A stretch of DNA of 64,000 nt from an uncultured Elusimicrobia bacterium. Lineage in GTDB: Bacteria > Elusimicrobiota > Elusimicrobia > Elusimicrobiales > UBA9959. The notes beneath the pieces are model-generated. The model worked only from the letters and a program-made list of their open reading frames with translations. It was not told the origin of the DNA and searched no databases. Positions 2,396 to 17,322 of the stretch are shown piece by piece. Made by a program: the position numbers and the translations under genes. The stretch is taken from assembly GCA_903879915.1 (NCBI GenBank), contig CAIRNJ010000102.1:13200-77199 (forward strand), in the 5' to 3' direction. How positions within the stretch are numbered: the first letter of the stretch is position 1; every line of letters starts with the position of its first letter.

Positions 2396-2429
2396 AGTTT
2401 TTAATAAGCGTCCCGGAACAGCTGCCCGC

Positions 2430-3797
2430 TTATTTAAGCGTTCTTACAAAAGCCTTGAACTTGCGGCCGCGGTCCTCGAAATCCCTGAACTGGTCGAAGG
2501 AGGCGCAGGCCGGCGAGAACAGCGCGGTTTCCCCCGCCGCGCCCAGCGCCAGGATACTGCGGCAGGCGTTCTCCATGGTGCCGGAGGTTATGACGGGGCA
2601 GCAGCCGGCCAGCTCGCGCTCTATGCGGGCCGCGCCCGTGCCTATGGTGAGCACCGCTTTCACCCTTTCCTTAATAAGGGGGGCCAGCGGCGCGTAAGGC
2701 GTGCCTTTGTCCGTGCCGCCCATTATCAGCCAGGCCGCTCTTTCGGGCGGCATGGCTTTTAGCGCCACCAGCGTGGAGTCGACGTTGGTGGCTTTGGAAT
2801 CGTTTATGAATTTAATGCCGCGCACCGTGCCGGCCGGCTCCAGCCTGTGCTCCACGCCTTTGAACGCGGCGAAGGCCTTCCTTATATGGGCCGGGGCCGC
2901 GCCGGCGGCCAGGGCCATCAGGCCGGCGCACATGGCGTTCTCCAGGTTGTGCGCGCCGGGCAGGGCCGGCGGCCGCGCCGAAAATGAAACCTTGCCGGCC
3001 TTAAAATAGATTTTACCGCCGCGCGTCCAGGCGTTCAGGCCTTTCGTGCCGCCGGCGGACGCGAAGAAAAGTTTTTTTGCCCGGCACTGCTTCGCGAGCT
3101 TAACGGTCCTGGGGTCGTTGCTGTTAAAAACGCAGACGTCCTCAGGGGTCTGGAATTTAAAGACCCTTTCTTTCGCCTTTACGTAGCCGGCCATCGTGCC
3201 GTGATGGTCTATATGGTCGGGCGTGATGTTGAGGATGCAGGAGACCGCGGGTTTTATGAACGAGCTGTCCTCCAGCTGGTAGCTGGAGAGCTCCATCACT
3301 ATCGCGTCGCCGGCCCGGGCCCCGGCGGCCGACCCCGCCGCGGGCACGCCCACGTTGCCGCAGACCAGCGCCCGGCCGGCGCCTTTCAGCGCCAGGGTCA
3401 TGATCTCGCCCAGCAGCGTGGTGGTGGTGGTTTTGCCGTTGGTGCCGGTCACCGCCAGCAGCGGCGCGCCGCCGGCGAAAGCCAGCGCTATCTCTATCTC
3501 GCTGAAAACGGGGATCTTTTTAGCTTTCAGCGCCGCTATCAGCGGGTTGGAATGCGGGAGCCCCGGGCTTTTGACGGCGAAAGCGCAGCCGTAAACGGCC
3601 CTGGTATGCCCGCCGGTCTCGGCGGTTACCCGGCGGGACAGGCCTTTAAGGCCCGCTTTCACCGCCGCGGCCTCTTTTTCTTCCGTAAGCAGCACTTCGA
3701 AGCCTTTGGCCGCCAGCAGGTTGGCGCAGGCCGCGCCCGACCTTCCGGCGCCTATGACCAGCGCTTTTTTGCCTTTATAAATACCAGGGTTGAACAT
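2430..3797 (-). CDS. murD: UDP-N-acetylmuramoylalanine--D-glutamate ligase
   Basis: 455 aa. N-terminal KKALVIGAGRSGAACANLL Rossmann-like segment and the Mur ligase P-loop AVTGTNGKTTTTTL. dcw position after mraY. Confidence 0.9.
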   Translation of the reverse strand: MFNPGIYKGKKALVIGAGRSGAACANLLAAKGFEVLLTEEKEAAAVKAGLKGLSRRVTAETGGHTRAVYGCAFAVKSPGLPHSNPLIAALKAKKIPVFSEIEIALAFAGGAPLLAVTGTNGKTTTTTLLGEIMTLALKGAGRALVCGNVGVPAAGSAAGARAGDAIVMELSSYQLEDSSFIKPAVSCILNITPDHIDHHGTMAGYVKAKERVFKFQTPEDVCVFNSNDPRTVKLAKQCRAKKLFFASAGGTKGLNAWTRGGKIYFKAGKVSFSARPPALPGAHNLENAMCAGLMALAAGAAPAHIRKAFAAFKGVEHRLEPAGTVRGIKFINDSKATNVDSTLVALKAMPPERAAWLIMGGTDKGTPYAPLAPLIKERVKAVLTIGTGAARIERELAGCCPVITSGTMENACRSILALGAAGETALFSPACASFDQFRDFEDRGRKFKAFVRTLK

Positions 3798-3812
3798 AAA
3801 GTTCCGGCAGCG

Positions 3813-4898
3813 TTACCGTATTTTCAGGGACGACAGCGCTATCAGCATCAGCATGATGCCGGCTATCCAGAAGCGCACCGTGACCTTCGACTCCGCTATG
3901 CCTTTAAGCTCGAAGTGATGATGGATGGGGGCCATCAGAAAAATGCGCTTTTTATTGCGCAGCTTGTACGACCCCATCTGCAGGATGACGGACAGCGTCT
4001 CCAGCAGGAAAATGCCGCCGGCCACGGGCAGCAGCAGCTCCTGCTTGGTGCAGATGGCCGCCACGCCGATGGTGCCGCCCAGGAACAGCGAGCTGGTGTC
4101 GCCCATGAACACTTCTGCCGGGTGCGCGTTGAACCACAGGAAACCCAGGCAGGAGCCGATCATGGCAGAAAGGAATACCGTCATCTCCCCCGCCCCTTCC
4201 ACGTAGATGATCTTGAAATAAGAGGCCAGCTTCATGTTGCCGGCCGAGTAGGCCAGGATGGCGAAGGTGAGGGCGGAGAACACTATGGTGCCCGCCGCCA
4301 GGCCGTCCAGCCCGTCGGTGAGGTTCACCGCGTTGGAGGAGCCGATTATTATGATCATCGCCAGGGCCGCGTAAATAAAGCCGAGGTGCAGGTACAGTTC
4401 CTTGGTGTAAGGAATGGAGAGCAGGGTGGCGTAAGCGGCGTTGGGCGGGTTGGCCGCCAGGTAGCCGGTGACCACCAGCGCGGCGAACAGCTGCAGCGAG
4501 AATTTGAAGGCCGAAGAGGCGCCGCGCGGATTCTTCTTCACCAGTTTGGTGTAGTCGTCCAGCCAGCCGGCGAAAGCCAGCACCACCGTGGTGAAGATCA
4601 GCAGCAGGATGAAGCGGTTGTCTATGCGTGCCCAGAGCAGGGTGGAGACCAGCAGCGTCATAAAAATAAGCAGGCCGCCCATGGTGGTGGTGCCCTGCTT
4701 CGCCAGGTGGGTCTGGGGGCCGTCGGTGCGCTGCACCTGCCCTATCTTGTAGGAGCGGAGCTTGGCTATCAGCCAGGGGCCCGCCAGCAGGCTGAGCAGG
4801 AAGGAGGTTATCAGCGCGCCGCCCGCCCTGAAGGTTATGTACTGGAAAACGTTGAGCGGGGTGAAGAATTCCTTGAAATAGTGCGCGTAGTAAAGCAT
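3813..4898 (-). CDS. mraY: Phospho-N-acetylmuramoyl-pentapeptide transferase
   Basis: 361 aa polytopic protein with MraY hallmarks (NAVNLTDGLDGLA, MGDTSSLFLGG, APIHHHFEL). AAGGAAC just upstream of the ATG could serve as the RBS. Confidence 0.95.
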   Translation of the reverse strand: MLYYAHYFKEFFTPLNVFQYITFRAGGALITSFLLSLLAGPWLIAKLRSYKIGQVQRTDGPQTHLAKQGTTTMGGLLIFMTLLVSTLLWARIDNRFILLLIFTTVVLAFAGWLDDYTKLVKKNPRGASSAFKFSLQLFAALVVTGYLAANPPNAAYATLLSIPYTKELYLHLGFIYAALAMIIIIGSSNAVNLTDGLDGLAAGTIVFSALTFAILAYSAGNMKLASYFKIIYVEGAGEMTVFLSAMIGSCLGFLWFNAHPAEVFMGDTSSLFLGGTIGVAAICTKQELLLPVAGGIFLLETLSVILQMGSYKLRNKKRIFLMAPIHHHFELKGIAESKVTVRFWIAGIMLMLIALSSLKIR

Positions 4899-4984: not shown

Positions 4985-5063
4985 ACATATTTCCCTAAAG
5001 GCCTATCGGCCTATCGCCCTAATTGCTCAGGCCCGCCCGCCCGGTGAGTATCATAATATACCA

Positions 5064-6356
5064 GTGAAAAAAACCGCTCTGCCCCCCGCTTTGCTGTTCA
5101 GCCTGGCTTTTTGCGCCGTGCCCGCGCGCGCGCAGCTTGAAGCGCTCACCGCCGCCGGCCTGCCGGCCGTAGCGGTCCCCGCCGCCGCCGAGCCCGGCCG
5201 CGCGGCCCAGGCCGAGTGGACGGTGCTCATTTACGTAAGCGCCCGCAATAACCTGGGCCTGGAAGCCATCAAGGACGTCAACGAAATGGAAGCCGCCGGC
5301 TCCACCGCTAAAGTTAACGTGGTGGCGGAGCTGGGGCGCATCAAGTGCGATCCCCCTTTCAACCCTTTTTCCAGCACGCAGGAACCGGTGCCGCCGCAGG
5401 CGGACTGGACCGGCTCGCGCCGCTTCCTGCTGGTGAAGGATACCGACCCGCTGAAGATAAATTCCCCGGTGCTGGCCCAGTATCCGGACGCCGACATGGG
5501 CGACTGGCGGCACCTGGCCGAATTCATAGCCTGGGGCAAGGCGGCTTACCCGGCGAAAAAATATATGCTGATAGTGGGCGGCCACGGCAGCGGCTGGCGC
5601 GGCGTAAAGCCCCCTCCCGGCGCGCCCAAGGGCATCGCCTACGATGACGTTTCAGGCAGCCATATCTCCCCCGCCGAGCTGGCGGAGGCTATAAAGGCCG
5701 GCGGCGGCGTGAACGTGTACGCCTCGGACGCCTGCCTGATGCAGACCATAGAAGTGATCTACGACCTGAAGGATTCCGCCGAGTATATCGTTGGCTCGCA
5801 GGAGGCCACGCCAGGCAGCGGCTATAACTACGAGGTTTTCCTGAACGCGCTGGCGGCGGCCCCCGGCGACGCCTTCGCCGCGGCGCAGCACGTAATGGCC
5901 GGTTTCTCCGGCTATTACGGCGGCCTTAAACAGTCGGTGACCATGTCCATAGTGCGCCCAGCTTACGCGGCTGAAATGGCCGGGAAAATGGACAGGTTCG
6001 CCCGGCTGGTGGCCGCTTCCCCCGCGGATATGAAGCTGTACCACGACAGGAAGTTCGGCCTGCGCTCCTACGACGACGAGGACGCCCGCGACCTGTACCA
6101 GCTGATGAAACTGTACTACGACAGCAGCCCCACGCCCGCCGTGAAAGAGGCGGCGCGGGACGTGATAGTGTTCCTGTCGGAAAAGCTGGTGGCGCGCAAC
6201 GACGCGGTGGGCTACAAATCCAAGGACTCCAACGGGCTTTCGGTCTACTTCCCCATCTTCTACATGAACTACAAGCCGAAGTACGAATACCTCTCCTTCT
6301 CCCGGGCCACCTACTGGGACGAAATGGTGAAAGCCGTAGTAGAATCAAAGAAATAA
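5064..6356 (+). CDS. Secreted clostripain-family (MEROPS C11) cysteine peptidase
   Basis: GTG start followed by a signal peptide (VKKTALPPALLFSLAFCAVPARA). C11-type motifs WTVLIYVSARNNL, catalytic-His context IVGGHGSGW and catalytic-Cys context YASDACLM. The upstream 3201-5063 part of the track ORF is an antisense shadow of murD/mraY. Confidence 0.75.
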   Translation: MKKTALPPALLFSLAFCAVPARAQLEALTAAGLPAVAVPAAAEPGRAAQAEWTVLIYVSARNNLGLEAIKDVNEMEAAGSTAKVNVVAELGRIKCDPPFNPFSSTQEPVPPQADWTGSRRFLLVKDTDPLKINSPVLAQYPDADMGDWRHLAEFIAWGKAAYPAKKYMLIVGGHGSGWRGVKPPPGAPKGIAYDDVSGSHISPAELAEAIKAGGGVNVYASDACLMQTIEVIYDLKDSAEYIVGSQEATPGSGYNYEVFLNALAAAPGDAFAAAQHVMAGFSGYYGGLKQSVTMSIVRPAYAAEMAGKMDRFARLVAASPADMKLYHDRKFGLRSYDDEDARDLYQLMKLYYDSSPTPAVKEAARDVIVFLSEKLVARNDAVGYKSKDSNGLSVYFPIFYMNYKPKYEYLSFSRATYWDEMVKAVVESKK

Positions 6357-6367
6357 AACTGCAGCCG

Positions 6368-8083
6368 CTATTCCTTCGCTCCTGAAGAGGGCGGGAAAAA
6401 GAACGCTGAAACGCTGCCCAGCTGCGGCTCGGTCTTCGCGCCGTCGGAATAGATGTAATAAGGGGCGCTGGTGTAGCCGTCCAGGTTGCGCAGCTTCACC
6501 AGCGCGGCGCGCTGCTCCTCGGTGAGCGTTCTGTTCACTTTGGCGAAGGCCATAGTGTAGTACCAGGAAACCTCTCCGTCCAGCTCGCCGTACCGGCGGC
6601 CCAGCGCTAGGACCTTTTCTTTGTCGGGCGCCTGGCCCGCCAGGTACTTGCGCAGCTCAACCGATATTTCCTGCCGCACTTTTATTATTTCCGCCATGGC
6701 CTTGCGCTGGAGGGGCAGCACCGCGTCCACGTGCCGGCGCTGCGCGGGCGTAAGCACCTCGCTGAGGAAGGCCTTGCCGCTGTCGCCGGTCACCGAGGTG
6801 CTGATGTCGAAGCTCTTCTTGCCCATGGCGGGCATGTCCTTCATGTAGAACCCGCCGAAGTAGGTGCCGTGCCGCTCGGGGCAGAAATACGTATCGGCCT
6901 TGACCGAGCCGGCGGTCCAGCTGAAGAACTCGCTCAGATAGGTCATGTAGGCCACGTTGAACATCTTGGGCTTGCCGCGGCCCGCCTCTTTGGCCTCGGT
7001 CTCGTCCAGCTCAGGCCAGGTGGCGAAATCGCCGAACTTCATTTTGGCGAAATAGGCCTTCTGTTCCGCGCTCAGCGACAGCCAGACCTTGGCCATTACC
7101 TCGGCGCGGCGGCGGCTGAGCTCGGCGTCCACTTCAAAGATCCTGCCGACGCTCCGCATTACCGCGGCCTTATTAAGGCCGGTGCTGCCCGAAGGCAGCT
7201 GCTCGTCCTTCTGCATGTGGAAAGCTTTTATGACCGGCAGGCGCAGTTTGGCCAGTGCTACCAGCTGCGGCTGCTGTTCCTCGGCCAGGTCTATGAACAG
7301 CTGCTTCTGTTCGGCCGTTAGGTTATGCGCCACGTTGCCGGCCACCCGGCTGAGGAAGATCGGGTTATGCCCTTTCTTGGCGGCGTCGATGTCGCGCATG
7401 TACTGGAAGCCGAAGAAATCGCACACCTTGCCCGGCGGGATGAACGTGGCCGCGCCGAAATCCCCGGTAAGGAAAGCCAGGCCGTTGAAGGCGATGGTGG
7501 TAAGCTGCGCGTTGTCCGAGACGGCCTGCTCGAGGTTATACCGGCTGCCGCCCTCCTTGCCGCCGCCTTTTCTTCCGGCGCCTCCGGGCCCCCCCTTGCC
7601 CTGGCTGCCCCGCATTCCTCTTTCGCCGTCTTCCGCGCCGGGCCTGTCCGGGGGCGGGTCCATCTGTTTAAGCATCTCGGGATCGAACCCGACGGAGATC
7701 AAAAGTTCGTCTTCAACTGGACCACCCTGCACGCCTATATCCCGCAGGGCCTTGTGTATGGCCTTGGCGTCTTCGGCCGACAAGGCCGAGGCGTCGTACT
7801 TCGAAACTATTTCCGCGGCGCCGGCTTTTTGTTCTTCGGTGATGGTCTGTGAGCCGCCGCGCTCCTGCCTGCTGTTCGCGTTCCTGGACGGCCTTTGCCC
7901 GGATCTCTGCCCGGTCCGCTGTCCCGGCCTCGGTCTCTGGTCCTGCCCTCGCGCCTGCCCCCGTTCCTGCCCCTGGTCCTGCTCCTGCCCCGCTCCCCTG
8001 CCTTCGTCGTCCTGGTCCTGAGCCCGGGCCAGCGGCCCGCCCAGAACCAGCATATAGATGGCCGCCGTTATTAAAAATTTCAT
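6368..8083 (-). CDS. Secreted protein: signal peptide, Gln/Arg/Gly/Asp-rich disordered region, short helical segment, then the uncharacterised X domain with LTXXQ-like motifs (paralogous to the centre of the 1253-aa protein)
   Basis: Start moved to ATG 8083 (MKFLITAAIYMLVLGGPLARAQ signal peptide, GGAGAA RBS 6 nt upstream). The C-terminal ~370 aa align by eye with aa 605-1023 of ORF 8851..12612. Shared blocks: YN[IL]..., FPPGKV.D[YF].GFQ[FY][LM]RD, GHNP.F, LPSG.TGL, FSW..G.V.AD.YFCPER.GTY.GGFY.KD.PAM. Confidence 0.7.
   Translation of the reverse strand: MKFLITAAIYMLVLGGPLARAQDQDDEGRGAGQEQDQGQERGQARGQDQRPRPGQRTGQRSGQRPSRNANSRQERGGSQTITEEQKAGAAEIVSKYDASALSAEDAKAIHKALRDIGVQGGPVEDELLISVGFDPEMLKQMDPPPDRPGAEDGERGMRGSQGKGGPGGAGRKGGGKEGGSRYNLEQAVSDNAQLTTIAFNGLAFLTGDFGAATFIPPGKVCDFFGFQYMRDIDAAKKGHNPIFLSRVAGNVAHNLTAEQKQLFIDLAEEQQPQLVALAKLRLPVIKAFHMQKDEQLPSGSTGLNKAAVMRSVGRIFEVDAELSRRRAEVMAKVWLSLSAEQKAYFAKMKFGDFATWPELDETEAKEAGRGKPKMFNVAYMTYLSEFFSWTAGSVKADTYFCPERHGTYFGGFYMKDMPAMGKKSFDISTSVTGDSGKAFLSEVLTPAQRRHVDAVLPLQRKAMAEIIKVRQEISVELRKYLAGQAPDKEKVLALGRRYGELDGEVSWYYTMAFAKVNRTLTEEQRAALVKLRNLDGYTSAPYYIYSDGAKTEPQLGSVSAFFFPPSSGAKE
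7853..8023 (-). repeat. Low-complexity coding repeat (QDQ/GQR/GQE-rich, about 57 aa)
   Basis: Encodes AQDQDDEGRGAGQEQDQGQERGQARGQDQRPRPGQRTGQRSGQRPSRNANSRQERGG. The DNA shows a cryptic cctg/ctgc periodicity. Confidence 0.6.
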
Positions 8084-8129: not shown

Positions 8130-8157
8130 TTAAACCTCAGATAGCGTAAAAAGTTCC
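8130..8157 (-). promoter_or_regulatory. ECF-type promoter candidate, site B (upstream of the X-domain gene)
   Basis: The minus strand reads cGGAAC-TTTTTACGCTATCTGAG-GTTTAAg (N17 spacer). Intergenic, between the PEBP stop (8168) and ATG 8083. Same architecture as sites A, C and D. Confidence 0.45.
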
Positions 8158-8167
8158 GCAAGCTCCG

Positions 8168-8788
8168 TTACTGTCCTTCCCCCGGCGGCGGAGGCGGCGG
8201 CCCGTCCGCGCCGTCACTGCCCGGCTCCGTGAACCGCTCATAGATCACGCTGAATTCGGCTGAGCCGAGTATCAGCCCTTTCATGGCCGAGAGCAAAGTT
8301 TCCCGGTTTACTTTCTCCGGCTTAACAGTTATCCTCGGCGCAGCCGACAGCGCGTAGACGGTGTAGATATATTTCTTCGGCCCCGGGCCTTTCGAGTGCG
8401 GCGGCGCGTAGCCCGCCCGCCCGTTCACGCTGTTAGTTCCCAGTATCCCTACGCCTTTTACGTTCTTAGGCAGTTTCCTGGTTTTTGCAGGAATATCGTA
8501 AATTATCCAGTACCATTTGGTCTTGTCCGGCGCGATATGGTGCATGATCAGCGCGAAGCTCTTAGCTGCTTTCGGCGCGCCGCTCCATTCCAGCGGCAGC
8601 GTGGCGCTGGCCCCGTCGCCGGTATATTCCACGGGCAATTGGCCGCCGTCCTCTACGGCGGGGCTCCTGAGCACAAAACCGGCCGCGGAGCTTTTTTTCT
8701 CCGCGCCTTGCTCCGGCTGCGCCGGGGCGCCGCCCGGAAAGGACAGCGCCAGCAGCCCGCCCAGCGCTAAAATAATAAACCGTTCCAT
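8168..8788 (-). CDS. Secreted PEBP/YbhB-YbcL-like protein with a Pro-rich C-terminal tail
   Basis: Start moved to ATG 8788 (MERFIILALGGLLALS signal peptide, GGGAGG RBS). PEBP-like core: LPLEWSGAPKAAKSFALIMHH...KWYWIIYDIP...GYAPPHSKGPGPKKYIYTVYALS. Ends in GPPPPPPGEGQ. Confidence 0.7.
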   Translation of the reverse strand: MERFIILALGGLLALSFPGGAPAQPEQGAEKKSSAAGFVLRSPAVEDGGQLPVEYTGDGASATLPLEWSGAPKAAKSFALIMHHIAPDKTKWYWIIYDIPAKTRKLPKNVKGVGILGTNSVNGRAGYAPPHSKGPGPKKYIYTVYALSAAPRITVKPEKVNRETLLSAMKGLILGSAEFSVIYERFTEPGSDGADGPPPPPPGEGQ

Positions 8789-8802: not shown

Positions 8803-8830
8803 TTAAACAGCTTTGCCCGCAAAAAGTCCA
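8803..8830 (-). promoter_or_regulatory. ECF-type promoter candidate, site D (upstream of the stand-alone PEBP gene)
   Basis: The minus strand reads tTGGAC-TTTTTGCGGGCAAAGCT-GTTTAAt (N17). The -35 is imperfect (TGGAC). It lies only about 15 nt from the ATG, so the leader would be very short. Confidence 0.3.
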
Positions 8831-8850: not shown

Positions 8851-11800
8851 TCACGGCGCTGTATAGGTCAGCGTCATTGTCGCGGAACTGATAGTGATCC
8901 CCGAAAGCGCGGCCGTAAGAACTGAACCTGTCACCGGTGATGAAAGCGACGGCGCTGCGGACAGGGCGTAGAGCTTATACGTATAAAGCCTGTTGCCGCC
9001 GCCGCAGGGCGGGTTGTAGGCCGTTCCCAGCGGCCCGTCGCTGGTCCCCAGGGTCCCGCCGCCCGTAGTATTCTTGGCGAAGCCTGAACTGCTGCCTGGT
9101 ATGCCGTAGAGTACCCAGTTATACTTGGTCTCTAACTGCGGCGTAACTTCAGACATAGTCAGTGCGAACTGCTGCGTTCCCGAGGGCGCATTGGTCCAGG
9201 ACATGGCGGGAGATGAACTGGAACCGGAACAGGAATATTCCAGCGTCATGGCCCCGCCGCCCGTACCCGCGCCGCTCGTCAGGGTAAAGAGCGCCTGTGT
9301 GACGCTCACCATATGGCTTGCGGAGCCCGAGCCGGCGGAGTTCGAGGCCGTAAGCGTTACGGTATAGGTGCCTGAGGAGGCGTAAACGTGCGCCGGGTTC
9401 TGTGCTGAGCTGGTTGCCCCGTCCCCGAAATCCCAGGCCCACGAGGCAGGGGCGCCGCCGGAGGCGTCCGTGAACGAGACCGTACCGCCGGCGGCAGGAG
9501 AGGAAGGAGAGAAGGAGAACGCCGCCGAGGGCGCGTCGGTGGCGAACAGGTAGTCGGTATCGTCGATATACGGCGTTATCCTGGCCAGCACGGCGGGGTC
9601 GGTGGTGGTGTCCGAGTAAAGGTAAGTGGATCTGCAGACAGAATAGTCGTAAGGGGTCCCGTTGCTATAAGTGCTGATAAGCAGACCGTCCCAGAAATCC
9701 GTCTTCAGATGGGCCCTCTGGGCGGCGCTCAGCGAGTCGGCTACCTGCTTGAAAGTTGTGGCGTAGTAGTAATTGTTAATGCCGTCCAGCGTGCCGTAGG
9801 TGGCCGAGGACAGCGCCAGCACCTGCGCCCTGACGGCGGCGCTGGAAGCGGTAGAGACCAGCAGGGTGCGCAGCAGCGCCGCTATCTGCGCGCGCACTGC
9901 CACTATGCCCTCCATATTGCTCCGCTGCACCTCGATGAGGTTCGTCATGATGGCGGCCTGCGTGGACGCCACGTAGCCCAGGGAACTGTCGAGCAGGGCC
10001 GCCCCGGCGTTGCCGGTCAGCGCGGAGTCTATGGTGTAGCTGACGCCCTGTGGCGCGTTCATGGCCGGCGCGTCCTTGATATAGAACCCGCCGTAATAGG
10101 TGCCCTGGCGTTCTGGGCAGAAATAGACGTCGGCCTCGACGTTGCCGGAATACCAGCTGAAGAGGTCGCCGGCGTAGGTCATTACCAGGGTGTTCATCGT
10201 GGTATTTGAAGCGTTGGCGCCCAGCGCGGTCTCTACCCTTGTCTTCATGTAATTGGCGTCGGTCACGGTCCAGGAGGAAGCGCCCACCCCTTTCATGGCG
10301 TCCAGCTCGGCCAGCTGGGCGCGCGTCATGGAATTATAGACGTTGGCGTAAGCCAGGGCCCGGTCGAAGGCTATCTGGCCGTCCATGAGGTAGAGTTCCT
10401 GCGACACGGCCGTTACCGCGCTCAGGCTGAGGCCGGTGGCGCCGGAAGGGATGTTCCCGTCCATCAAACGCCGGAAAGCTTGTATCAGCCTGAAGCGGTG
10501 ATAAGCGTACTCGTTGACCTGGTCCGCCTGGCTCACTGCCAGGGCCGCCAGCTGCGCCAGCTGGGAGTCGCTGAGTATCCGGATGACGCTGTTGGAGGTC
10601 AGGCCCGTGAAATCCGGGTTGTGCCCCATATTGCTGGGGTCGCTGTCCCGGAGGAACTGGAACCCGGTGTAGTCGGCCACTTTGCCCGGCGGGAAGTACG
10701 ACTGCGAGCCCAGGTTGGCGTTCATCAGGCCGAGGGCGTCGAAGGCCAGCGTGGTGCCCTGGGCCTGGTCGGAGATGCCCTGCGAAATATTATAGGCCGG
10801 CACGGTGACGGTTATAGAGCGGGTCAGCGTGGCCGAGCTGATGGAATTGGCGACCCTGAGCGTGACGGTGTAGCTGCCTGCCGAGCTGTAAACGTGCGTC
10901 GGGTACTGGGCGGTGCTGGTGGACGTGTTGTCGCCGAAATCCCAGGCCCAGGAAACAGGGGCGTTCTGCGAGGCGTCGGTAAAGCTTACCGTGTTATAGG
11001 TGGTAGGGCTGCTCGGGTAGAAGCTGAACGCGGGCGAGACGTTCGCCCGGGCGTAGGTCAGGTTCAGCGCCGCCGAGCTGATGATAAGTGAGGAGATGGC
11101 GCTGGTAAGCACGTCGCCGGTCACCAGGTCCGCTGCCGGCAGGGACGGCGCGCCCGACAGCGCGTATAAAGTGTAGGTATAGACCTTTGGCCCGGGGCCC
11201 TGCGAGCAGGGGGCGGCGTACTCCTGGCTTTGCGTGTCGCTGTTCACGCCCGCGGTGCCCACGCCGGAAGTGTTCTTGTCCAGGCCGGAGGCCGCCGCCG
11301 GTATGGCGTACAGCACCCAGTTCCATTTTGTGCTCCCGTCGCCCGGCAGCGTGGTCATGAGCAGCGCGAACTGCTGCGTGCCCGCCGGCGCGCCCGACCA
11401 GGCCAGGGCCGGGGAGGCGTACGCGCCGTCGCAGGTGTACTCGGCGGCCATGGCCGCCCCCTCCGCGCCTACGGGGCTGGTCAGCGCGAAGGCGCCCGCC
11501 GCCGCCACGGTTACGGTATGGCTGACCGCGCTGGAGCCCGCCGTATTCGCGGCCGTGAGGCTCACCGTGTAGCTGCCGGAGGAACTGAAAACGTGGGTCG
11601 GGGATTGCAGGGTGCTGCTTGAGCCGTCGCCGAAATTCCAGGCCCAGGAAGCGGGCGTGTAGGCAGAGGTGTCCGTAAAAGTCACCGTCTGGCCGGCGGT
11701 GGGCGAGGCGGGCGAAAAACTGAAGGCGGCTACGGGCGCCGACGATACCGCTGCCTGCGTATAGGTCAGCGTCATGGCGGCCGAACTTATGATCAGGCCC

Positions 11801-12612
11801 GAGAGCGCGGCCGTAAGAACGCCGCCCGTCACCTGCGCGGGGTCGGACGAAAGCGACGGGGCTCCGGACAGGGCGTAGAGCGTGTACGTATAAAGCCTGT
11901 TGCCGCCGCCGCAGGGCGGGTTGTAGGCTGTTCCCGCCGCGCCGTCGCTTTTGCCCGCCGTGCCGCCGCCGGTGGTGTTCTTGACGAAGCCGGAGCTGCC
12001 CGCCGGTATGCTGTATAGGACCCAGTTATATTTCGTCTCCAGCTGCGGAGTTAGTTCGGAAATGGTCAGCGCGAACTGCTGCGTGCCGGACGGCGCGCTG
12101 GTCCAGGCCATCGCCGGCGAAGACCCGGCTCCGGAGCAGGAATATTCCAGCGCCATAGCCCCGCCGCTCGTGCCCGCGCCGCTCTCCAGGGTGAAAGTCC
12201 CCTGGCTGACAACGGTCACTGTATGGCTTACGCTCCCGGCCCCCGCGGAGTTGGAGGCCGTAAGGGTTACACTATAACTGCCGGACGAGGCGTAGACGTG
12301 TGTCGGGTTCTGTGCCGCGCTGGTTGCGCCGTCGCCGAAGTTCCAGTCCCAGGAAGAGGGGCTGTTGACGGAGGCGTCGGTAAAGGTTACGGCCTGGCCG
12401 GCGGCCGGTGAAGCAGGAGAATAAGTGAAGGCCGCGGCCGGCGCGGCGGCCAGCGCGGCGGCCGCGGCCGCCCGCTTGTGTTCCGTCACCTTTTCGTCCA
12501 TCGTAGTCACCGCATGTTTTACCGCGCGGGTCATGCCCATATTGATCCCGGCGGACAGCGCGGCGGTCAGCGGGAACAGCGCGGCGAACAGCAGGCAATA
12601 AAGTTGTTTCAT
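8851..12612 (-). CDS. 1253-aa secreted modular protein: SP-[PKD-PEBP]-[PKD-PEBP]-PKD-X domain-[PKD-PEBP]
   Basis: Signal peptide MKQLYCLLFAALFPLTAALSA. Four PKD-type repeats (F.[FY].P..P..G..V.FTD.S...P.SW.W.FGDG..S....P.H.Y...G.Y.V.L...N). Three PEBP-like modules (P.[ML][AS]W...P.GTQQFAL...KYNWVLY.IP...Y.PPC...Y.Y.LYALS). Central ~420 aa are paralogous to ORF 6368..8083. The ATG lies 1 nt after the stop of the upstream barrel gene. Confidence 0.8.
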   Translation of the reverse strand: MKQLYCLLFAALFPLTAALSAGINMGMTRAVKHAVTTMDEKVTEHKRAAAAAALAAAPAAAFTYSPASPAAGQAVTFTDASVNSPSSWDWNFGDGATSAAQNPTHVYASSGSYSVTLTASNSAGAGSVSHTVTVVSQGTFTLESGAGTSGGAMALEYSCSGAGSSPAMAWTSAPSGTQQFALTISELTPQLETKYNWVLYSIPAGSSGFVKNTTGGGTAGKSDGAAGTAYNPPCGGGNRLYTYTLYALSGAPSLSSDPAQVTGGVLTAALSGLIISSAAMTLTYTQAAVSSAPVAAFSFSPASPTAGQTVTFTDTSAYTPASWAWNFGDGSSSTLQSPTHVFSSSGSYTVSLTAANTAGSSAVSHTVTVAAAGAFALTSPVGAEGAAMAAEYTCDGAYASPALAWSGAPAGTQQFALLMTTLPGDGSTKWNWVLYAIPAAASGLDKNTSGVGTAGVNSDTQSQEYAAPCSQGPGPKVYTYTLYALSGAPSLPAADLVTGDVLTSAISSLIISSAALNLTYARANVSPAFSFYPSSPTTYNTVSFTDASQNAPVSWAWDFGDNTSTSTAQYPTHVYSSAGSYTVTLRVANSISSATLTRSITVTVPAYNISQGISDQAQGTTLAFDALGLMNANLGSQSYFPPGKVADYTGFQFLRDSDPSNMGHNPDFTGLTSNSVIRILSDSQLAQLAALAVSQADQVNEYAYHRFRLIQAFRRLMDGNIPSGATGLSLSAVTAVSQELYLMDGQIAFDRALAYANVYNSMTRAQLAELDAMKGVGASSWTVTDANYMKTRVETALGANASNTTMNTLVMTYAGDLFSWYSGNVEADVYFCPERQGTYYGGFYIKDAPAMNAPQGVSYTIDSALTGNAGAALLDSSLGYVASTQAAIMTNLIEVQRSNMEGIVAVRAQIAALLRTLLVSTASSAAVRAQVLALSSATYGTLDGINNYYYATTFKQVADSLSAAQRAHLKTDFWDGLLISTYSNGTPYDYSVCRSTYLYSDTTTDPAVLARITPYIDDTDYLFATDAPSAAFSFSPSSPAAGGTVSFTDASGGAPASWAWDFGDGATSSAQNPAHVYASSGTYTVTLTASNSAGSGSASHMVSVTQALFTLTSGAGTGGGAMTLEYSCSGSSSSPAMSWTNAPSGTQQFALTMSEVTPQLETKYNWVLYGIPGSSSGFAKNTTGGGTLGTSDGPLGTAYNPPCGGGNRLYTYKLYALSAAPSLSSPVTGSVLTAALSGITISSATMTLTYTAP
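8854..9534 (-). repeat. C-terminal PKD-PEBP module (aa about 1027-1253)
   Basis: By eye its protein sequence is about four-fifths identical to the N-terminal module (11755-12432). The DNA differs at many third-codon positions. Confidence 0.7.
9544..10800 (-). other. X domain within the giant protein (aa about 605-1023), uncharacterised, with four LTXXQ-like motifs
   Basis: Motifs LSDSQLAQLAAL, MTRAQLAELDAM, VASTQAAIMTNL and LSAAQRAHLKTD occupy positions equivalent to LTAEQKQLFIDL, LSAEQKAYFAKM, LTPAQRRHVDAV and LTEEQRAALVKL of ORF 6368..8083. Confidence 0.6.
11047..11730 (-). repeat. Second PKD-PEBP module (aa about 295-522)
   Basis: Its PEBP part (STKWNWVLYAIPA...APCSQGPGPKVYTYTLYALS) is the module closest to the stand-alone PEBP gene (KTKWYWIIYDIPA...GPGPKKYIYTVYALS). 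Confidence 0.65.
11755..12432 (-). repeat. First PKD-PEBP module (aa about 61-286)
   Basis: Near-duplicate (at protein level) of the C-terminal module at 8854-9534. Confidence 0.7.
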
Positions 12613-12613
12613 A

Positions 12614-13207
12614 TCAGTACAGGAACAGCAGTGTCTGCGTGTCGCTCTTTTTGGAATTAGAGCGCTTCTTCTGCTGTTTCCCCCTTTTCCCGGCGGTACG
12701 GGCCGCGCCGGCTTTGCCGCCGCCCCAGTAGAAATTAAGCCCGAAATTAGCCACGTATTCGATAGCCCCGGCCGATACGGGCTCGTTTTTGTCCCGCAGG
12801 TAAATATAGGCCGGTCCGAAATCGGCCTGCAGCGAGGCGTCCGGAGCTAGGAAGCATTCGAAGCCTGCGAACAATTCCCCCGCGGCCCCGGCCCCGCGGC
12901 TGACTTCTCCCTTGAACTGTATGTAATCCGCTTCCGCGCCCAGGAACAGGTACATCGCCGCCGACGGGCGGTAATAGCTGTACAGGCGCAGGCCGCCCAC
13001 CGTAACGCCGCCGTCTGCCTGCCCTTTGGCTTCCAGCGCGTAGCGGTCGCTCATGAAATACCTGATACTTAGCCCCGGGTAATTGAAGCCCAGCCCGAAG
13101 GTGCCCCTGCCGGCACCCTGGCCGGCGCATGCCGCGCGGCAGCCCAAAAGCAGAATGCTGAAGCAGAAGCAGACGACCGCTGCGGTATTCCGGAAAGGCT
13201 TGAGCAT
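12614..13207 (-). CDS. Small outer-membrane beta-barrel protein (8-strand type) with a Lys/Arg-rich C-terminal tail
   Basis: Preferred start is ATG 13207 (MLKPFRNTAAVVCFCFSILLLGC...). Alternating aromatic/Gly beta-strand pattern (FGLGFNYPGLSIRYF, LRLYSYY, YLFLGAEADYIQF, ELFAGFECF, IEYVANFGLNFYW). Then the tail GGGKAGAARTAGKRGKQQKKRSNSKKSDTQTLLFLY. The start codon choice (13207, 13219 or 13231) is uncertain. Confidence 0.55.
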   Translation of the reverse strand: MLKPFRNTAAVVCFCFSILLLGCRAACAGQGAGRGTFGLGFNYPGLSIRYFMSDRYALEAKGQADGGVTVGGLRLYSYYRPSAAMYLFLGAEADYIQFKGEVSRGAGAAGELFAGFECFLAPDASLQADFGPAYIYLRDKNEPVSAGAIEYVANFGLNFYWGGGKAGAARTAGKRGKQQKKRSNSKKSDTQTLLFLY

Positions 13208-13241: not shown

Positions 13242-13269
13242 TTAAACAGCGAAACCGGAAAAAAGTTCC
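13242..13269 (-). promoter_or_regulatory. ECF-type promoter candidate, site A (upstream of the barrel + giant protein genes)
   Basis: The minus strand reads cGGAAC-TTTTTTCCGGTTTCGCT-GTTTAAa (N17), immediately after the terminator hairpin and about 35 nt upstream of ATG 13207. Confidence 0.45.
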
Positions 13270-13294
13270 GCCCTGAAAACGGATGTTTTCAGGG
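13259..13294 (-). terminator. Rho-independent terminator after the sigma/anti-sigma/LTXXQ operon
   Basis: Perfect 10-bp stem CCCTGAAAAC/GTTTTCAGGG (13271-13280 / 13285-13294) with a 4-nt loop. On the minus strand it is followed by CGGAACTTTTTT. It starts 42 nt after the stop at 13336. Confidence 0.65.
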
Positions 13295-13335
13295 CGTGTA
13301 TGGGGAGCGCGCAAGCCTGGGCGCGGCGCGAGGTT

Positions 13336-13743
13336 TTAGCGCGGTGCTCGCCTGTCCGGGTCTTCTCCGTCGCGGGGCGGCGGCGGCCTGTTTTCGCGGC
13401 GTTTGGAATCGTTGTCCAGTTCTTCCAGCCTGGCGTACTGCTCCGGCGTAAGGACGATCCTCAATTCCGACTTGATCCTCCGGCGCAGTTCTTCTAATCT
13501 GGGCTGTATGGAATCCTTCGTCTTTTTTACTTCTGGCCGGTATTTATTGAAAATGGCCGAAACCTGCTCCTGCTGGGGGCCGGAGAGGCCGAGCTCGCGG
13601 GTGAATTTTTCTATCGCGCCTTCGGCGGGGACCGGCTGCGGCGGCCTGCGTTTAAGATGCATATGATAATAATCGGAGAACAGGGCGCCCATCAGGACGC
13701 CCGCGGCCACGGCTGCGGCTATCTGGTTCCAGCGTATGTTCAT
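13336..13743 (-). CDS. Periplasmic LTXXQ-motif protein (Spy/CpxP/ZraP-like, the 'periplasmic heavy metal sensor' family)
   Basis: Start moved to ATG 13743, which overlaps the anti-sigma stop (ATGA). N-terminal TM/signal anchor IAAAVAAGVLMGALF, then LSGPQQEQVSAIF and LTPEQYARLEEL motifs. Basic/Pro-rich tail. Confidence 0.7.
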   Translation of the reverse strand: MNIRWNQIAAAVAAGVLMGALFSDYYHMHLKRRPPQPVPAEGAIEKFTRELGLSGPQQEQVSAIFNKYRPEVKKTKDSIQPRLEELRRRIKSELRIVLTPEQYARLEELDNDSKRRENRPPPPRDGEDPDRRAPR

Positions 13744-14248: not shown

Positions 14249-14276
14249 TATAACCGCCGATCATTGAAAAAGTTCC
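14249..14276 (-). promoter_or_regulatory. ECF-type promoter candidate, site C (inside the 3' end of the sigma gene, upstream of the anti-sigma gene)
   Basis: The minus strand reads cGGAAC-TTTTTCAATGATCGGCG-GTTATAc (N17). The GGAAC overlaps the last sigma codons (..AELFQ*). The -10-like element differs (GTTATA), so it could be coincidental. Confidence 0.3.
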
Positions 14277-14848
14277 GCCAGTTTTTCTTTCAGGCCGAGT
14301 TTCGCCCTGTGAAGAATGGATTTTACCGCCTTGGCCGAGCAGCCCATGACCTCCGCGATAGCTTCGTAGGAGAGTTCGTCGTAGCGGCAGAGCAGCACGG
14401 CAGTTCTTTGGTTCTCAGGCAATGAAGCCAGGGCTTTTTTTACCGCCTCGGCCTGTTCTTTTCTGATCAGCAGCTCCGCGGGCGGCAGATCTTTCGGGTC
14501 AGCCAGCTGCAGGCCGGGCGCGTCTTCCTGCGCTTCAGGCTTTTCGTCCAGAGGGACGAAAAGGCCCCTATGCCCGCGTTTAGCCAGAAAATTCAGACAG
14601 GTGTTGCGCGTAATGGTGAACAGCCAGGTGGTGAACTTCGCTTTTACCGTGTATTTGTTCCGGGCGTTGTAAACTTTAATAAAAACTTCCTGCGCGGCGT
14701 CCTCGGCGTCGGCGGCGTTGCCCAGGAACCTGTAAGCGAAGGCGAAAACCCGCTGCTTATGGGTTTTGACCAGCTCTATGAAGCAGGACTCCTCCCCGGC
14801 GATAAAGCGGAGCATCAACCGCGCGTCCTGGTCGGGATCCTCTGTCAT
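14261..14848 (-). CDS. ECF (group 4) RNA polymerase sigma-70 factor
   Basis: 195 aa. Region 2 (AEDAAQEVFIKVY...FTTWLFTITRNTCLNF) and region 4 (LPENQRTAVLLCRYDELSYEAIAEVMGCSAKAVKSILHRAK). The ATG overlaps the stop of the upstream PD40/TPR gene (ATGA). Confidence 0.9.
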   Translation of the reverse strand: MTEDPDQDARLMLRFIAGEESCFIELVKTHKQRVFAFAYRFLGNAADAEDAAQEVFIKVYNARNKYTVKAKFTTWLFTITRNTCLNFLAKRGHRGLFVPLDEKPEAQEDAPGLQLADPKDLPPAELLIRKEQAEAVKKALASLPENQRTAVLLCRYDELSYEAIAEVMGCSAKAVKSILHRAKLGLKEKLAELFQ

Positions 14849-17322
14849 TTATCTATGGACCGTGTTTCCTGCGCGGCCAGCGCGCTCTTCAGGTGACGGG
14901 CCGCGCTGTCCAGGTCGGGGTCGATGCTTAACGCTTTCCTGTAGGAAGCCAGCGCTTCGTCCCGGCGGCCCAGCTTTTCCAGCACCGCGCCCAGGAGGTC
15001 GTACGTACCCGCGTATTTCGGCTCCAGCCTTATCACTTCTCGGTAATGGGTTTCGGCCTCGCCGAACTCGCCGCGCGCCGCGAGCAGGGCCGCTAAAATG
15101 TCGTGAATGGCCACGTTGTTGCGGTCCAGCCGCGCCGCTTCCCTGTATTGCTTCACGGCCTCGGCCGGAGTACCCTGCGCTTCAAGGGCGGCGCCCAGCT
15201 CGGCGTGCAGCAGCGCGGTGTCGGGGCTCAGCTTCAGCGCCGCCAGGTATTTCTCTATGGCTTCAGCGAGCATTGCTTTTCTTTCCGCCCCGGAATATTC
15301 CGCCGGGCCCGGCGGCACATAGTCGTAGCGGGCTTTCAGCGCCGCGTGGTAATTGGTCCTGTCATCAGGCAGCAGGCTCTGCATGCCCAGGGCGCCGGCC
15401 AGATAATAGAACACGATAGCCGAATCCGGCCGCGCATTTATTGAGTCCCTGTAATGGCCGATCGCGCCTTTCAGGTCGCCGCGCTTAGCCAGGAGCAGGC
15501 CCATATTGGCGTGCGCGTGGGGATCGTTGGGGGCTAATTTAAGCGCCTCGTTCAAATGAGAGAAAGCCTCCTCGCGGCTGCCGGTCTTCTCCAGCGCAAC
15601 GCCCAGCAGGATCTGCACTTCGGTGTTCCCTGGGTCGAGCTCCAGCGCTTTGCGGTACGAAGCTATGGCTCCGCCGCTGTCGTTGGCCCTGGCGAACTCG
15701 AGGCCCGCCCGGTGGAAGGAAAGGCTGTCCAGGAACCTTTCGCGTATCTTTTTAAGTATGCCGCCTTTAGCCGGGAGGAATTCCGGGATGTTGGCCGCCC
15801 TGTCGGGCGCGGTAAAGCCGTCCAGCAGGACAGGGGGCGTATCGTTGCCCTGCGCGTCGATATGGGTAAGAAAAAGCTGTGTATAGGGCGTGTTGGCCTT
15901 GGAGGCGAAGACCAGCCAGCGGCTGTTGGGCGACCAGCTGTGCCAGGAGTTCATCGTGGGTTGGTTGCAGCGCATTTTCCTGGCTTCGCCCCCGCCGGCG
16001 GGCATGATATAGAGCTCGCTGTCGGGCTGCAGCAGCATGAAACTTTTCGCTTTGCAGAATATTATCCATTTCCCGTCGGGCGAATATTTCGGGAAGAAAT
16101 TGCTCATGCCGTTATCGGAAGCGCCCTGCAGCGGTTCCGGCTTGCCGCCGCGGCCTTCGTTGAAAGCAACGCGGTAAAGGTCGAACAGGAATTTCTGGCC
16201 GCCTTCCAGGAATTCCGCGCATTCTTCCTTCGCCAGCAGCACCTTGTCCCTATCGCGCAGATTTTTCAGCTTATGCGCCAGGTTCCTGGCGAAAACGATA
16301 TACTTGCCGTCGGGGCTCCAGGCGGGGTTGCTCTGTACGAATTCGGGGTCGTCAGCGCCCGGCAGCGCCTGGAAGGTCTTAGCCGCGCGGGAATAGACGG
16401 CCAGGATGCCGCTGACCGGAAAAAAAAGCTGCGAGAAGGCCAGCCCCGGCGTGGCCACGAACACCGAGCGGTCCTTGACCGTGCTGACCGCGTACCGCCC
16501 GTCCGGGGAAACCTGCGAAAGCAGGCCGAAGGTCTGGACGCCTTCCGTCCTTTTATAATCGTGCCAAGTGATGATCTTGCTTTTGTCGAGGATGGTCTCT
16601 TCGAGCACCCGGGCGATGGCGTAGGAGCCTTTGTCGTTGGCGTAATCCACGTCCATGCCCAGCACCGAGCCGTCGGCGGAAAAGGAATGGCAGTTGCCGC
16701 AGACCGGCAGATTCTCCAGCACTACCGGGGGCTGCGTTCTCAGGGAGACCTTCCCCAGCCGCCAGCGGATGCGCGAGGGGTCCTTTACCGCCTCGCTGAA
16801 CGGCAGGTTCACTTCCCTGTAGAACAGCGGCGCCTCTACTTTGTCTTTGGAGGTGCTGAAGGAAATGCTGCCCGCAGACAGGATATTTCCGGGCGCGCCG
16901 CGGGCGGCGCCGGCCACGGTAAGCCTGGCGGTCCGCTCCAGCGACCGGCGTTTGATAAGCTCCCAGTCGTCGTTGCCGGGAGTCCACTCCGGGGCCGCGG
17001 AAATAAAGCTCAGGCGGCCGCCGGCCGCGCCGGAGAATTCTATAGTCACCAGCCACAGGTCCGCGGCGGCGTTGTTGTCTTTCCAGCGGAACCCGGGGGC
17101 CGCTATGTCCGCCGGGAAAAGCGTGCCGTCGAAAGGTTTCTCGAAGGTTATGCCGCCGTCAGCCGCTCCGCTCCTGTAAGCCGCCAGCAGGGCGGCCAGG
17201 GCGGGGTCGGGCCTGGCCGGCGCGGCCGAGATAGTGCGCAGCAGCCCGGCGCCCAGTACGGCCAGCAGCAGCAGCGCGGCGCGGCGGTGCTGCTGTACTA
17301 TGAAGAGCGTGATGGTTCTCAT
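14845..17322 (-). CDS. Secreted protein: N-terminal domain with a single CXXCH motif, TolB-like PD40 beta-propeller repeats, C-terminal TPR repeats
   Basis: Signal peptide. VCGNCHS at aa 207-213. PD40-type repeats (VSPDGRYAVSTV, WSPDGKYIVFAR, YSPDGKWIIFCK, WSPNSRWLVFAS). At least five TPR-like units in the last ~270 aa (for example AIASYRKALELDPGN, AIGHYRDSINARPD, ALASYRKALSIDPD). Confidence 0.75.
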   Translation of the reverse strand: MRTITLFIVQQHRRAALLLLAVLGAGLLRTISAAPARPDPALAALLAAYRSGAADGGITFEKPFDGTLFPADIAAPGFRWKDNNAAADLWLVTIEFSGAAGGRLSFISAAPEWTPGNDDWELIKRRSLERTARLTVAGAARGAPGNILSAGSISFSTSKDKVEAPLFYREVNLPFSEAVKDPSRIRWRLGKVSLRTQPPVVLENLPVCGNCHSFSADGSVLGMDVDYANDKGSYAIARVLEETILDKSKIITWHDYKRTEGVQTFGLLSQVSPDGRYAVSTVKDRSVFVATPGLAFSQLFFPVSGILAVYSRAAKTFQALPGADDPEFVQSNPAWSPDGKYIVFARNLAHKLKNLRDRDKVLLAKEECAEFLEGGQKFLFDLYRVAFNEGRGGKPEPLQGASDNGMSNFFPKYSPDGKWIIFCKAKSFMLLQPDSELYIMPAGGGEARKMRCNQPTMNSWHSWSPNSRWLVFASKANTPYTQLFLTHIDAQGNDTPPVLLDGFTAPDRAANIPEFLPAKGGILKKIRERFLDSLSFHRAGLEFARANDSGGAIASYRKALELDPGNTEVQILLGVALEKTGSREEAFSHLNEALKLAPNDPHAHANMGLLLAKRGDLKGAIGHYRDSINARPDSAIVFYYLAGALGMQSLLPDDRTNYHAALKARYDYVPPGPAEYSGAERKAMLAEAIEKYLAALKLSPDTALLHAELGAALEAQGTPAEAVKQYREAARLDRNNVAIHDILAALLAARGEFGEAETHYREVIRLEPKYAGTYDLLGAVLEKLGRRDEALASYRKALSIDPDLDSAARHLKSALAAQETRSIDK

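Follow-up and report, generated by a model that had tools for sequence, protein, structure and literature searches.

What does a 1253-amino-acid (aa) exported protein built from PKD domains, PEBP (YbhB/YbcL) domains and an unnamed central domain do, and does it stand alone or represent one form of something wider? The question arises from a 64,000-nt stretch of DNA (hereafter, the window) from an uncultured Elusimicrobia bacterium, in which this protein, referred to here as the giant, is encoded at 8851-12612. An earlier reading of the window (the original prediction) had placed a 1253-aa open reading frame at this position without giving its strand; the frame is present, begins with ATG and lies on the minus strand. 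The interpretation we favor, at a probability of roughly 0.5, is that the locus is an envelope-stress module controlled by an extracytoplasmic function (ECF) sigma factor, in which pairs of PEBP and the central domain, designated X, act as effectors and the giant is an Elusimicrobiota-specific multivalent fusion.

Pfam profiles disclosed four PKD stretches in the giant (PF18911, 1.4e-66, 221 bits against a cut-off of 27; PF00801, 2.8e-58, 194 bits against 23.5) and three PEBP stretches (PF01161, 8e-44), the best of which, aa 388-520, aligns to positions 2-135 of the 135-position profile. The NCBIfam model for YbhB/YbcL (TIGR00481) matched at 72.8 bits (cut-off 57.75), and comparison of PEBP module 2 with PDB sequences returned E. 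coli YbcL (1FUX, 2.8e-7), 3N08 (4.4e-6), and YbhB (1FJJ, 1.7e-4). These matches confirmed the PEBP assignment and the module boundaries that had been proposed. Judged by eye, the N-terminus, MKQLYCLLFAALFPLTAALSA followed by G, reads as a Sec-type signal peptide (SP). The layout is as follows, with XA denoting the X domain of the giant.

8851-12612, minus strand: giant exported protein, SP-[PKD-PEBP]-[PKD-PEBP]-PKD-XA-[PKD-PEBP], 1253 aa, ATG start
12193-12432, minus strand: PKD domain 1, aa 61-140 (Pfam)
11755-12192, minus strand: PEBP domain 1, aa 141-286, Elusimicrobiota-specific "YNW / GGGNRLYTY" subtype
11488-11730, minus strand: PKD domain 2, aa 295-375 (Pfam)
11047-11487, minus strand: PEBP domain 2, aa 376-522, widespread "MTT...WNW...PPCSQGPG" subtype, the companion of A-class X
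10801-11037, minus strand: PKD domain 3, aa 526-604 (Pfam)
9541-10800, minus strand: XA domain, aa 605-1024, an all-helical tandem duplication with the motifs FPPGKVADYTGFQFLRD...MGHN and YFCPERQGTYYGGFYIKDAP
9292-9534, minus strand: PKD domain 4, aa 1027-1107 (Pfam)
8854-9291, minus strand: PEBP domain 3, aa 1108-1253, same subtype as PEBP domain 1

The first and last PKD-PEBP modules (module 1, aa 61-286; module 4, aa 1027-1253) share 78.4% protein and 78.1% DNA identity, and codons differ at 63 of their 174 identical residues, in agreement with the earlier estimate of about four-fifths identity with many synonymous differences. Modules 1 and 2 are 60% identical, and modules 2 and 4 are 57% identical. 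An identical giant is found on independent metagenome contigs of 197.7 kb and 20.9 kb, and orthologues of ~78% identity (P0122 and P0121) retain the four PKD and three PEBP domains. The giant is thus not an assembly artefact, and the contigs, the conserved orthologues, and the synonymous differences together rule out a recent duplication as well, as the original prediction had argued. Module 1 of the window is nearer to the C-terminal module of the orthologues (76-80%) than to their module 1 (70%); therefore, the N-terminal copy is derived from the C-terminal copy. On these identities, the N-terminal module has evolved fast since about the split of the window and orthologue lineages. The relatives of the window show 90-93% identity.

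Ser, Thr, Ala, and Gly make up 49% of the giant, only 9% of its residues are charged, and its isoelectric point (pI) is 4.7. Its PKD domains are spacers. Other PKD-containing secreted proteins likewise place tandem immunoglobulin-like PKD spacers between functional modules, and the giant shares with them the signal peptide and the low charge; it differs in its cargo, which is PEBP and X and not hydrolases or proteases.

The central domain, left as unknown by the original prediction, indeed has no Pfam-A or NCBIfam model over aa ~605-1023, but it can be identified as a duplicated LTXXQ/Spy-CpxP-like domain. The identification proceeds through a paralogue, XB, encoded two genes downstream of the giant and sharing 35% identity with XA (E 1e-73). 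Between the two lies the gene for a small exported PEBP, here called PEBP-H.

8168-8788, minus strand: PEBP-H, stand-alone exported PEBP of 206 aa, basic "MHH...WYW...PPHSKGPG" subtype (PF01161, 2.3e-20)
6368-8083, minus strand: XB, 571 aa, consisting of a signal peptide, a low-complexity and small N-terminal region, and a B-class X with four LTXXQ motifs

XB matches the Pfam LTXXQ family (PF07813) at 2.2e-8 and 35.2 bits, above the cut-off of 24.3, and its separate halves score 23.8 and 21.6 bits with nearly the whole profile covered. At E<=0.01, 18 of 26 C-terminal halves of XB proteins match LTXXQ, while seven of 26 match Metal_resist. Each half of X carries two L-(T/S)-x-x-Q motifs, which read LTAEQ, LSAEQ, LTPAQ, and LTEEQ in XB and LSDSQ, MTRAQ, (V)ASTQ, and LSAAQ in XA. 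XA itself reaches just 12.7 bits against LTXXQ (E 0.22) and its halves give no match; it is assigned to the same type because of its relationship to XB. The internal duplication is evident from hhalign comparisons of the halves within class A (N- versus C-terminal, 91%, 1.1e-6), within class B (98.6%, 7.7e-16), and across the classes (A N-terminal versus B C-terminal, 96.9%).

An AlphaFold2 (AF2) model of X (predicted local distance difference test score, pLDDT, 82.8; predicted template modeling score 0.87) shows, by DSSP, a short-long-long-short pattern of helices that occurs twice, and each unit agrees with the four-helix monomer described for Spy (PMC8144458). When a profile of the XB C-terminal half was compared with all PDB sequences, Spy was the top match and accounted for four of the five matches, with both LTXXQ motifs aligned, at an E-value of just 0.4; a direct hhalign comparison of this half with E. 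coli Spy gave 75.6% (E 2.4e-5). Searches of the PDB with the single X sequence, and with the A1 profile, returned chance-level matches only. A point against kinship with Spy is that Foldseek, queried with the X model, did not recover Spy or CpxP. Taken together, X appears to consist of two Spy/CpxP-like (LTXXQ) units of four helices each, joined covalently into a pseudo-dimer.

This arrangement has clear parallels in the Spy/CpxP/ZraP family (PF07813), whose members are exported as X is and share the four-helix hairpin units with paired LTXXQ motifs; Spy is also basic, as is B-class X. Spy and CpxP bring two units together as homodimers, whereas X holds both in one chain. Unlike these proteins, X is a covalent tandem of ~400 aa that is far more conserved across phyla, and its units add the invariant loops PPGKVxDYxGFQYLRD and CPERxGTYxGxFYxKD. 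It further differs in having two classes of opposite charge and in its habitual PEBP, PKD, and sometimes phosphoesterase partners, and only XB reaches the Pfam threshold. In full, the loop motif that opens the first half is FFPPGKVADYTGFQYLRDxDPxxMGHN, and that of the second half is YFCPER(H/Q)GTYYGxFYIKDAP. The His of MGHN is invariant and the Cys of CPER(H/Q) near-invariant, among many Asp, Glu, Arg, Lys, His, and Cys residues that are invariant across phyla.

X is the conserved core of the system. The family comprises at least 1620 clusters at 90% identity, which are 55-58% identical over the full length, and 906 representatives when clustered at 50% identity (E<=1e-3); among species-representative genomes there are at least 588 matches. 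Its hosts include Elusimicrobia, Acidobacteriota, Verrucomicrobia, Planctomycetes, Hydrogenedentes, Omnitrophota, Armatimonadota, Spirochaetes, Chloroflexota, and Beta-, Gamma-, and Deltaproteobacteria. In public records these proteins are named "hypothetical protein" or after their spacer domains. A search of plasmids for X gave one match, useful as an annotated example only. According to the record titles, the X carriers among loci L002-L081 are mostly metagenome-assembled genomes that come from stratified lakes (boreal or humic), from peat, and from comparable freshwater sites.

The recurrent partner of X is PEBP. It is the domain most commonly fused to X (16 of 70 cluster representatives), and, of 80 genome loci, 27 have a PEBP either fused to X or encoded within 8 kb of it. 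In the RefSeq genome of Ca. Chlorohelix, for example, an X annotated as "hypothetical protein" is followed by an adjacent "YbhB/YbcL family" protein. That bacterial PEBPs are normally single-domain proteins, as the original prediction stated, agrees with a 2022 review in which YbhB homologues are mostly stand-alone, rarely fused, and found in few informative neighborhoods (PMC8793217).

The PEBPs linked to X form a distinct set. The profile matches of the giant's PEBP domains to YbhB/YbcL are full-length and the matches to sequences of solved structures are direct, and PEBP-H resembles periplasmic YbcL in being exported and of similar size. Unlike YbhB/YbcL, however, X-linked PEBPs have the pocket motifs DPDxP, W-H-W, and GxHRY replaced by MHH/WYW/PPHSKGPG or MTT/WNW/PPCSQGPG, and those of the giant are additionally repeated three times on PKD spacers and linked to X. 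Aligned to YbcL, the PEBP of the giant shows TL-PGDG in place of DPDAP, WNW in place of WHW, and KVY in place of HHY, so that the canonical pocket is lost. The same replacements are conserved across 38 PEBP domains associated with X; a canonical YbhB at locus L049, not related to these, keeps DDPDAP/VHW/RHRY. Since the pocket Asp, His, and His are replaced, the multivalent ligand binding suggested by the original prediction is doubtful as far as the classical PEBP pocket is concerned.

Two pairings can be distinguished by charge. Class A X is acidic (median pI 5.0) and is the only class fused to PKD, while class B is basic (median pI 8.4). The PEBPs likewise fall into a basic subtype, MHH...WYW...PPHSKGPG (median pI 8.8), and an acidic one, MTT...WNW...PPCSQGPG (median pI 5.1), of which SEL...YNW...GGGNRLY is an Elusimicrobiota derivative. 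The WYW subtype is present in all four B-class fusions and the WNW type in most A-class fusions. The window holds both pairs: A-class X with WNW-type PEBP fused in the giant, and the WYW-type PEBP-H with XB as separate basic exported proteins. PEBP-H has a pI of 9.3 and scores 52.3 bits against TIGR00481, under the cut-off, and a near-identical relative is named YbhB/YbcL family protein.

The novelty claimed for the giant needs to be restated in this light. We found no papers on PKD with PEBP, and searches of the literature on LTXXQ with PEBP, on Elusimicrobia surface proteins, and on PEBP with envelope stress returned nothing relevant; no published account of the X-PEBP association was found either. 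In databases, by contrast, proteins of 760-1740 aa that combine PKD, PEBP, and X recur: many metagenomes contain them, as do Geobacter pelophilus, Geothrix, and Holophagaceae, with no annotation beyond "PKD domain-containing protein". The three-PEBP version is confined to the closest relatives, while the PKD-PEBP-X architecture itself is recurrent; the giant is therefore a rare elaboration of a recurrent, hitherto undescribed architecture. Lcl_C (PF07603) domains also recur in several lineages fused to or adjoining PKD-PEBP-X proteins (P0121, 1739 aa; P0131; P0139; L084, 9809-11137). A further unreported class of PEBP fusion combines FGE-sulfatase, PEBP, and arylsulfotransferase in large exported proteins adjoining X (L086, 3607-6936; L083, 9971-17390).

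The neighborhoods of X point to envelope-stress signaling. A regulator lies beside X in 47 of the 80 genome loci (59%), as a two-component system in 37 and an ECF sigma factor in 10. The best-scoring models are BaeS (404-426 bits), CpxA, or heavy-metal sensor kinase for the kinases and heavy-metal regulator (238-249 bits) for the response regulators, all under the equivalog cut-offs. The minimal unit is X with a kinase and a regulator only, which parallels cpxP-cpxRA, zraP-zraSR, and the control of spy by BaeSR and CpxAR. Tannin, butanol, and zinc induce E. coli Spy, which is under the control of both systems (PMC8144458). The genetic link to envelope-stress signaling that marks the LTXXQ family is thus found in these 47 loci and, in the window, as an ECF sigma/anti-sigma pair. 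Beside the X gene of locus L051, a CpxA-like kinase (5018-6589, minus strand) contains a Cys-rich periplasmic segment (CEGKKEGDSCTFTSPRGALSGLCLSGTENIFGCRP) that is maybe a distinct sensor domain.

On the minus strand of the window, the gene order is ECF sigma factor, zf-HC2 anti-sigma factor, a small LTXXQ/Metal_resist-like protein, a terminator, an outer-membrane barrel, the giant, PEBP-H, and XB. The original prediction took in neither this regulatory setting nor the PEBP and X paralogues encoded downstream of the giant. The features upstream of the giant, together with four promoter-like sites (P1, P2, P3, and a weaker one), are listed below.

14261-14848, minus strand: ECF-type sigma factor, 195 aa (Sigma70_r2, 1.3e-21; Sigma70_r4_2, 1.1e-17)
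14249-14276, minus strand: promoter-like site P1, GGAACTTTTTCAATGATCGGCGGTTATA, upstream of the anti-sigma gene; same position in L002
13740-14228, minus strand: anti-sigma factor, 162 aa, one predicted transmembrane segment (zf-HC2, 3.5e-4)
13336-13743, minus strand: small membrane-anchored LTXXQ/Metal_resist-like protein, 135 aa, in a CnrX/CpxP-like operon position
13269-13296, minus strand: intrinsic-terminator-like hairpin downstream of the small LTXXQ gene, with a 12-bp stem and then a T run
13242-13269, minus strand: promoter-like site P2, GGAACTTTTTTCCGGTTTCGCTGTTTAA, upstream of the barrel-giant operon; also in L002 and L004
12614-13207, minus strand: 8-stranded outer-membrane beta-barrel of 197 aa whose C-terminal tail is disordered and rich in Lys and Arg (AF2, Foldseek)
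8803-8830, minus strand: weaker promoter-like site, TGGACTTTTT-N12-GTTTAA, two mismatches in the -35 part, between the giant stop and the PEBP-H start
8130-8157, minus strand: promoter-like site P3, GGAACTTTTTACGCTATCTGAGGTTTAA, upstream of XB; same position in L002 and L004

The sigma factor scores 115 bits against TIGR02937 (sigma70-ECF; cut-off 42.9). The anti-sigma factor also matches NCBIfam NF052375 (1.6e-9) and has an N-terminal HxxxCxxC zinc-finger motif, HLEECASC. The 135-aa protein has an N-terminal hydrophobic stretch and matches Metal_resist (2.6e-4) and LTXXQ (9.4e-4), both under the cut-off. This order of ECF sigma factor, membrane anti-sigma factor, small membrane-anchored protein with weak Metal_resist/LTXXQ similarity, and presumed target genes resembles CnrH-CnrY-CnrX. 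It differs from that system in that the anti-sigma factor is of the zf-HC2 type and not CnrY-like, the Metal_resist match is under the cut-off, and the outputs are not metal efflux pumps.

The pattern GGAAC-N17-GTTWWA occurs exactly three times in the 64 kb, compared with 0.06 expected, and these three occurrences precede the anti-sigma gene, the barrel-giant operon, and XB. The pattern is kept at the same positions in L002 and L004, where the surrounding intergenic DNA has diverged. From their conservation and placement, these GGAAC-type sites appear to be promoters read by the adjacent ECF sigma factor. The -35 element of P2 overlaps the terminator (13242-13296, minus strand), with GGAAC directly after the stem in the T-run region, an overlap that could couple termination and initiation. 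The motif GGAACTTT is present 10 times in the window against 1.7 expected; beyond the three cluster sites, it lies at 2223, 3798, 20088, 22305, 29061, 42273, and 48879.

The small barrel encoded 1 nt upstream of the giant (barrel stop 12614-12616, giant ATG 12612) is also substantiated. Its AF2 model has eight strands at aa 37-163 (pLDDT 76), and Foldseek returned the OprF N-domain (4e-5), OmpW (3.5e-4), OmpA-TM, OmpX, and NspA, all of which are 8-stranded. The barrel matches no Pfam or NCBIfam model and hence belongs to no named family in these collections. Its 16 homologues are all on Elusimicrobiota-type contigs, the same contigs that carry giant orthologues. Co-transcription of barrel and giant, as originally proposed, is likely because the two genes share a conserved promoter-like element. 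As the barrel family is confined to Elusimicrobiota and X is associated with PEBP in many phyla, the barrel is an accessory specific to this lineage. The barrel core terminates in NFYW/NFYF, which is the C-terminus of the shortest homologues. The tail (12614-12730, minus strand) of ~35 aa, absent from those homologues, is Lys/Arg-rich and ends in a conserved hydrophobic W/L-L-x-Y; it is possible that this tail is a docking element for the acidic giant.

The following sequence of events would account for these features. In the resting state, the ECF sigma factor would be held by the membrane anti-sigma factor, with the small CnrX/CpxP-like periplasmic protein alongside. An extracytoplasmic insult, for which protein-damaging polyphenols or solvents and metals are candidates, would free the sigma factor to transcribe barrel-giant(-PEBP-H) and XB, and the X-PEBP proteins would then be exported. 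In the periplasm, the basic pair of PEBP-H and XB would bind either clients that have been damaged or the ligand responsible, and the acidic giant would do so probably at or beyond the outer membrane, beside the co-expressed barrel. The X-PEBP activity would be a holding of client or ligand of the Spy/ZraP type, maybe with feedback on the sensor like that of CpxP and ZraP. The invariant polar loops of X and the rebuilt PEBP pocket, both read from alignments, suggest a specific ligand, with metals, polyphenolic compounds, and phospho- or sulfo-ester compounds in the lead.

A broader proposal is made tentatively, at somewhat less than even odds: X and the re-pocketed PEBPs would constitute an unrecognized, horizontally widespread stress effector system made up of two oppositely charged cognate pairs, of which one would act in the periplasm and the other at the surface or as secreted protein, under BaeS/CpxA/CusS-like kinases or ECF sigma factors in hundreds of species of more than 10 phyla. 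If this is true, bacterial PEBP would gain its first defined physiological role and partner, with the giant as the most elaborate and multivalent member of the system. Defense against polyphenol (tannin-like) damage would then be suggested by the enrichment of carriers in peat and humic boreal lakes and by the arylsulfotransferase neighbors.

Part of the same evidence could be read as metal homeostasis, with X and the His-rich PEBP-H binding Cu, Zn, or Ni as ZraP and CnrX do, the giant serving as a high-capacity surface metal buffer, and the regulators as metal sensors. The response regulators beside X, and several of the kinases, are indeed best matched as heavy-metal types, and the Metal_resist (CnrX-type) profile detects seven of 26 XB halves as well as the small operon protein. 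The near-invariant Cys and invariant His of X, and the conserved His (MHH...PPH) that PEBP-H has gained at the canonical pocket site, would also suit a metal ligand. However, every regulator score is under its curated cut-off and other loci have BaeS- or CpxA-like kinases, the PEBP subtypes of the giant (MTT or SEL) are without the His cluster, and the neighborhoods inspected showed no genes for metal efflux or resistance. We consider metal homeostasis an unlikely explanation.

A second rival would have the locus work outside the cytoplasm on phospho- or sulfo-esters or phenolics, either as an enzyme system or to capture these substrates; X would be catalytic or substrate-binding and act with PEBP, esterases, sulfatases, and arylsulfotransferases, and the regulators would sense the substrate. 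PEBPs have been argued to be possible small-molecule enzymes (PMC8793217). Purple-acid-phosphatase-like metallophosphoesterases are encoded in 21 of the 80 loci; in L002 and L004 the gene directly follows XB, and P0129/L011 and L013 are examples of fusion to X. Sulfatases, arylsulfotransferases, FGE-sulfatase, and Lcl_C domains recur near X, and the triple FGE-sulfatase fusion described above adjoins it. The invariant Asp, Glu, Arg, Lys, His, and Cys residues of X would suit an active site, and members of its family carry fusions typical of secreted enzymes, namely dockerin, type IX secretion system (T9SS) tails, fn3, and TIG. Nevertheless, the phosphoesterase is missing from the window, and the minimal unit pairs X with a stress-type two-component system and no enzyme. 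X is built from LTXXQ-like hairpins, a fold for which we know of no catalytic members, and the canonical phosphate pocket of PEBP is lost. The enzymatic account is doubtful, although the recurrent enzyme neighbors keep it, or a scavenging role, under consideration.

Least probable is a purely structural surface protein, an adhesin or S-layer-like coat anchored via the barrel with PEBP and X merely binding surfaces or cells, since the PKD spacers, the composition and pI of the giant, the conserved barrel partner, and homologues with dockerin, T9SS tails, or Lcl_C would fit such a role but the cross-phylum linkage of X to stress-type regulators, the periplasm-like basic paralogues, and the invariant polar residues of X would be left unexplained.

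Structures of bacterial PEBP (YbhB/YbcL) have been available for 25 years and, to our knowledge, there is no agreed function. The family-level association of X, PEBP, and regulator is, in this respect, a more valuable result than the giant itself: a distinct PEBP clade is repeatedly and strongly associated with an unnamed family of ~400 aa beside envelope-stress regulators in hundreds of species, and bacterial PEBP proteins thereby gain a first consistent functional context. Testable hypotheses follow on four points: that X and PEBP form complexes, that metals or polyphenols act as inducers, that the proteins work as chaperones or by sequestration, and that the ECF sigma factor recognizes the promoters. 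Carriers that can be cultured include Geobacter pelophilus, Victivallis vadensis, Photobacterium sp. OFAV2-7, and Ca. Chlorohelix. A Pfam, InterPro, or NCBIfam model of the X family is likewise warranted.

The genes that flank the cluster are more variable. Upstream, a gene with TPR and PD40/Tricorn-N-like domains (825 aa; 14845-17322, minus strand) overlaps the start of the ECF sigma gene by 4 nt and itself follows a gene for ~1140 aa whose product faintly resembles M16 peptidases (17338-20781, minus strand); the sigma gene may be co-transcribed with both. The TPR/PD40 gene was not detected in L002, which reaches only ~3.9 kb upstream of the sigma gene, or in L004, which starts at the barrel, so that the region is covered in part at most. 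A C11 (clostripain-type) peptidase gene (~5065-6356, plus strand) converges on the 3' end of XB, at the place taken by the metallophosphoesterase in L002 and L004. The C11, M16-like, and Tricorn-like peptidase genes on either side of the cluster raised the idea that PEBP inhibits proteases; it was rejected as the main interpretation since these neighbors are not conserved in related loci. An anti-phage defense system was likewise dropped after PADLOC gave no matches. Downstream of the locus lie cell-division and cell-wall genes (132-4898, minus strand) for an MraY-like glycosyltransferase 4, a MurD-like ligase, FtsW/RodA, and a MurG-like protein, and the copy of GGAACTTT at 3798 immediately precedes the ATG of the murD-like gene.

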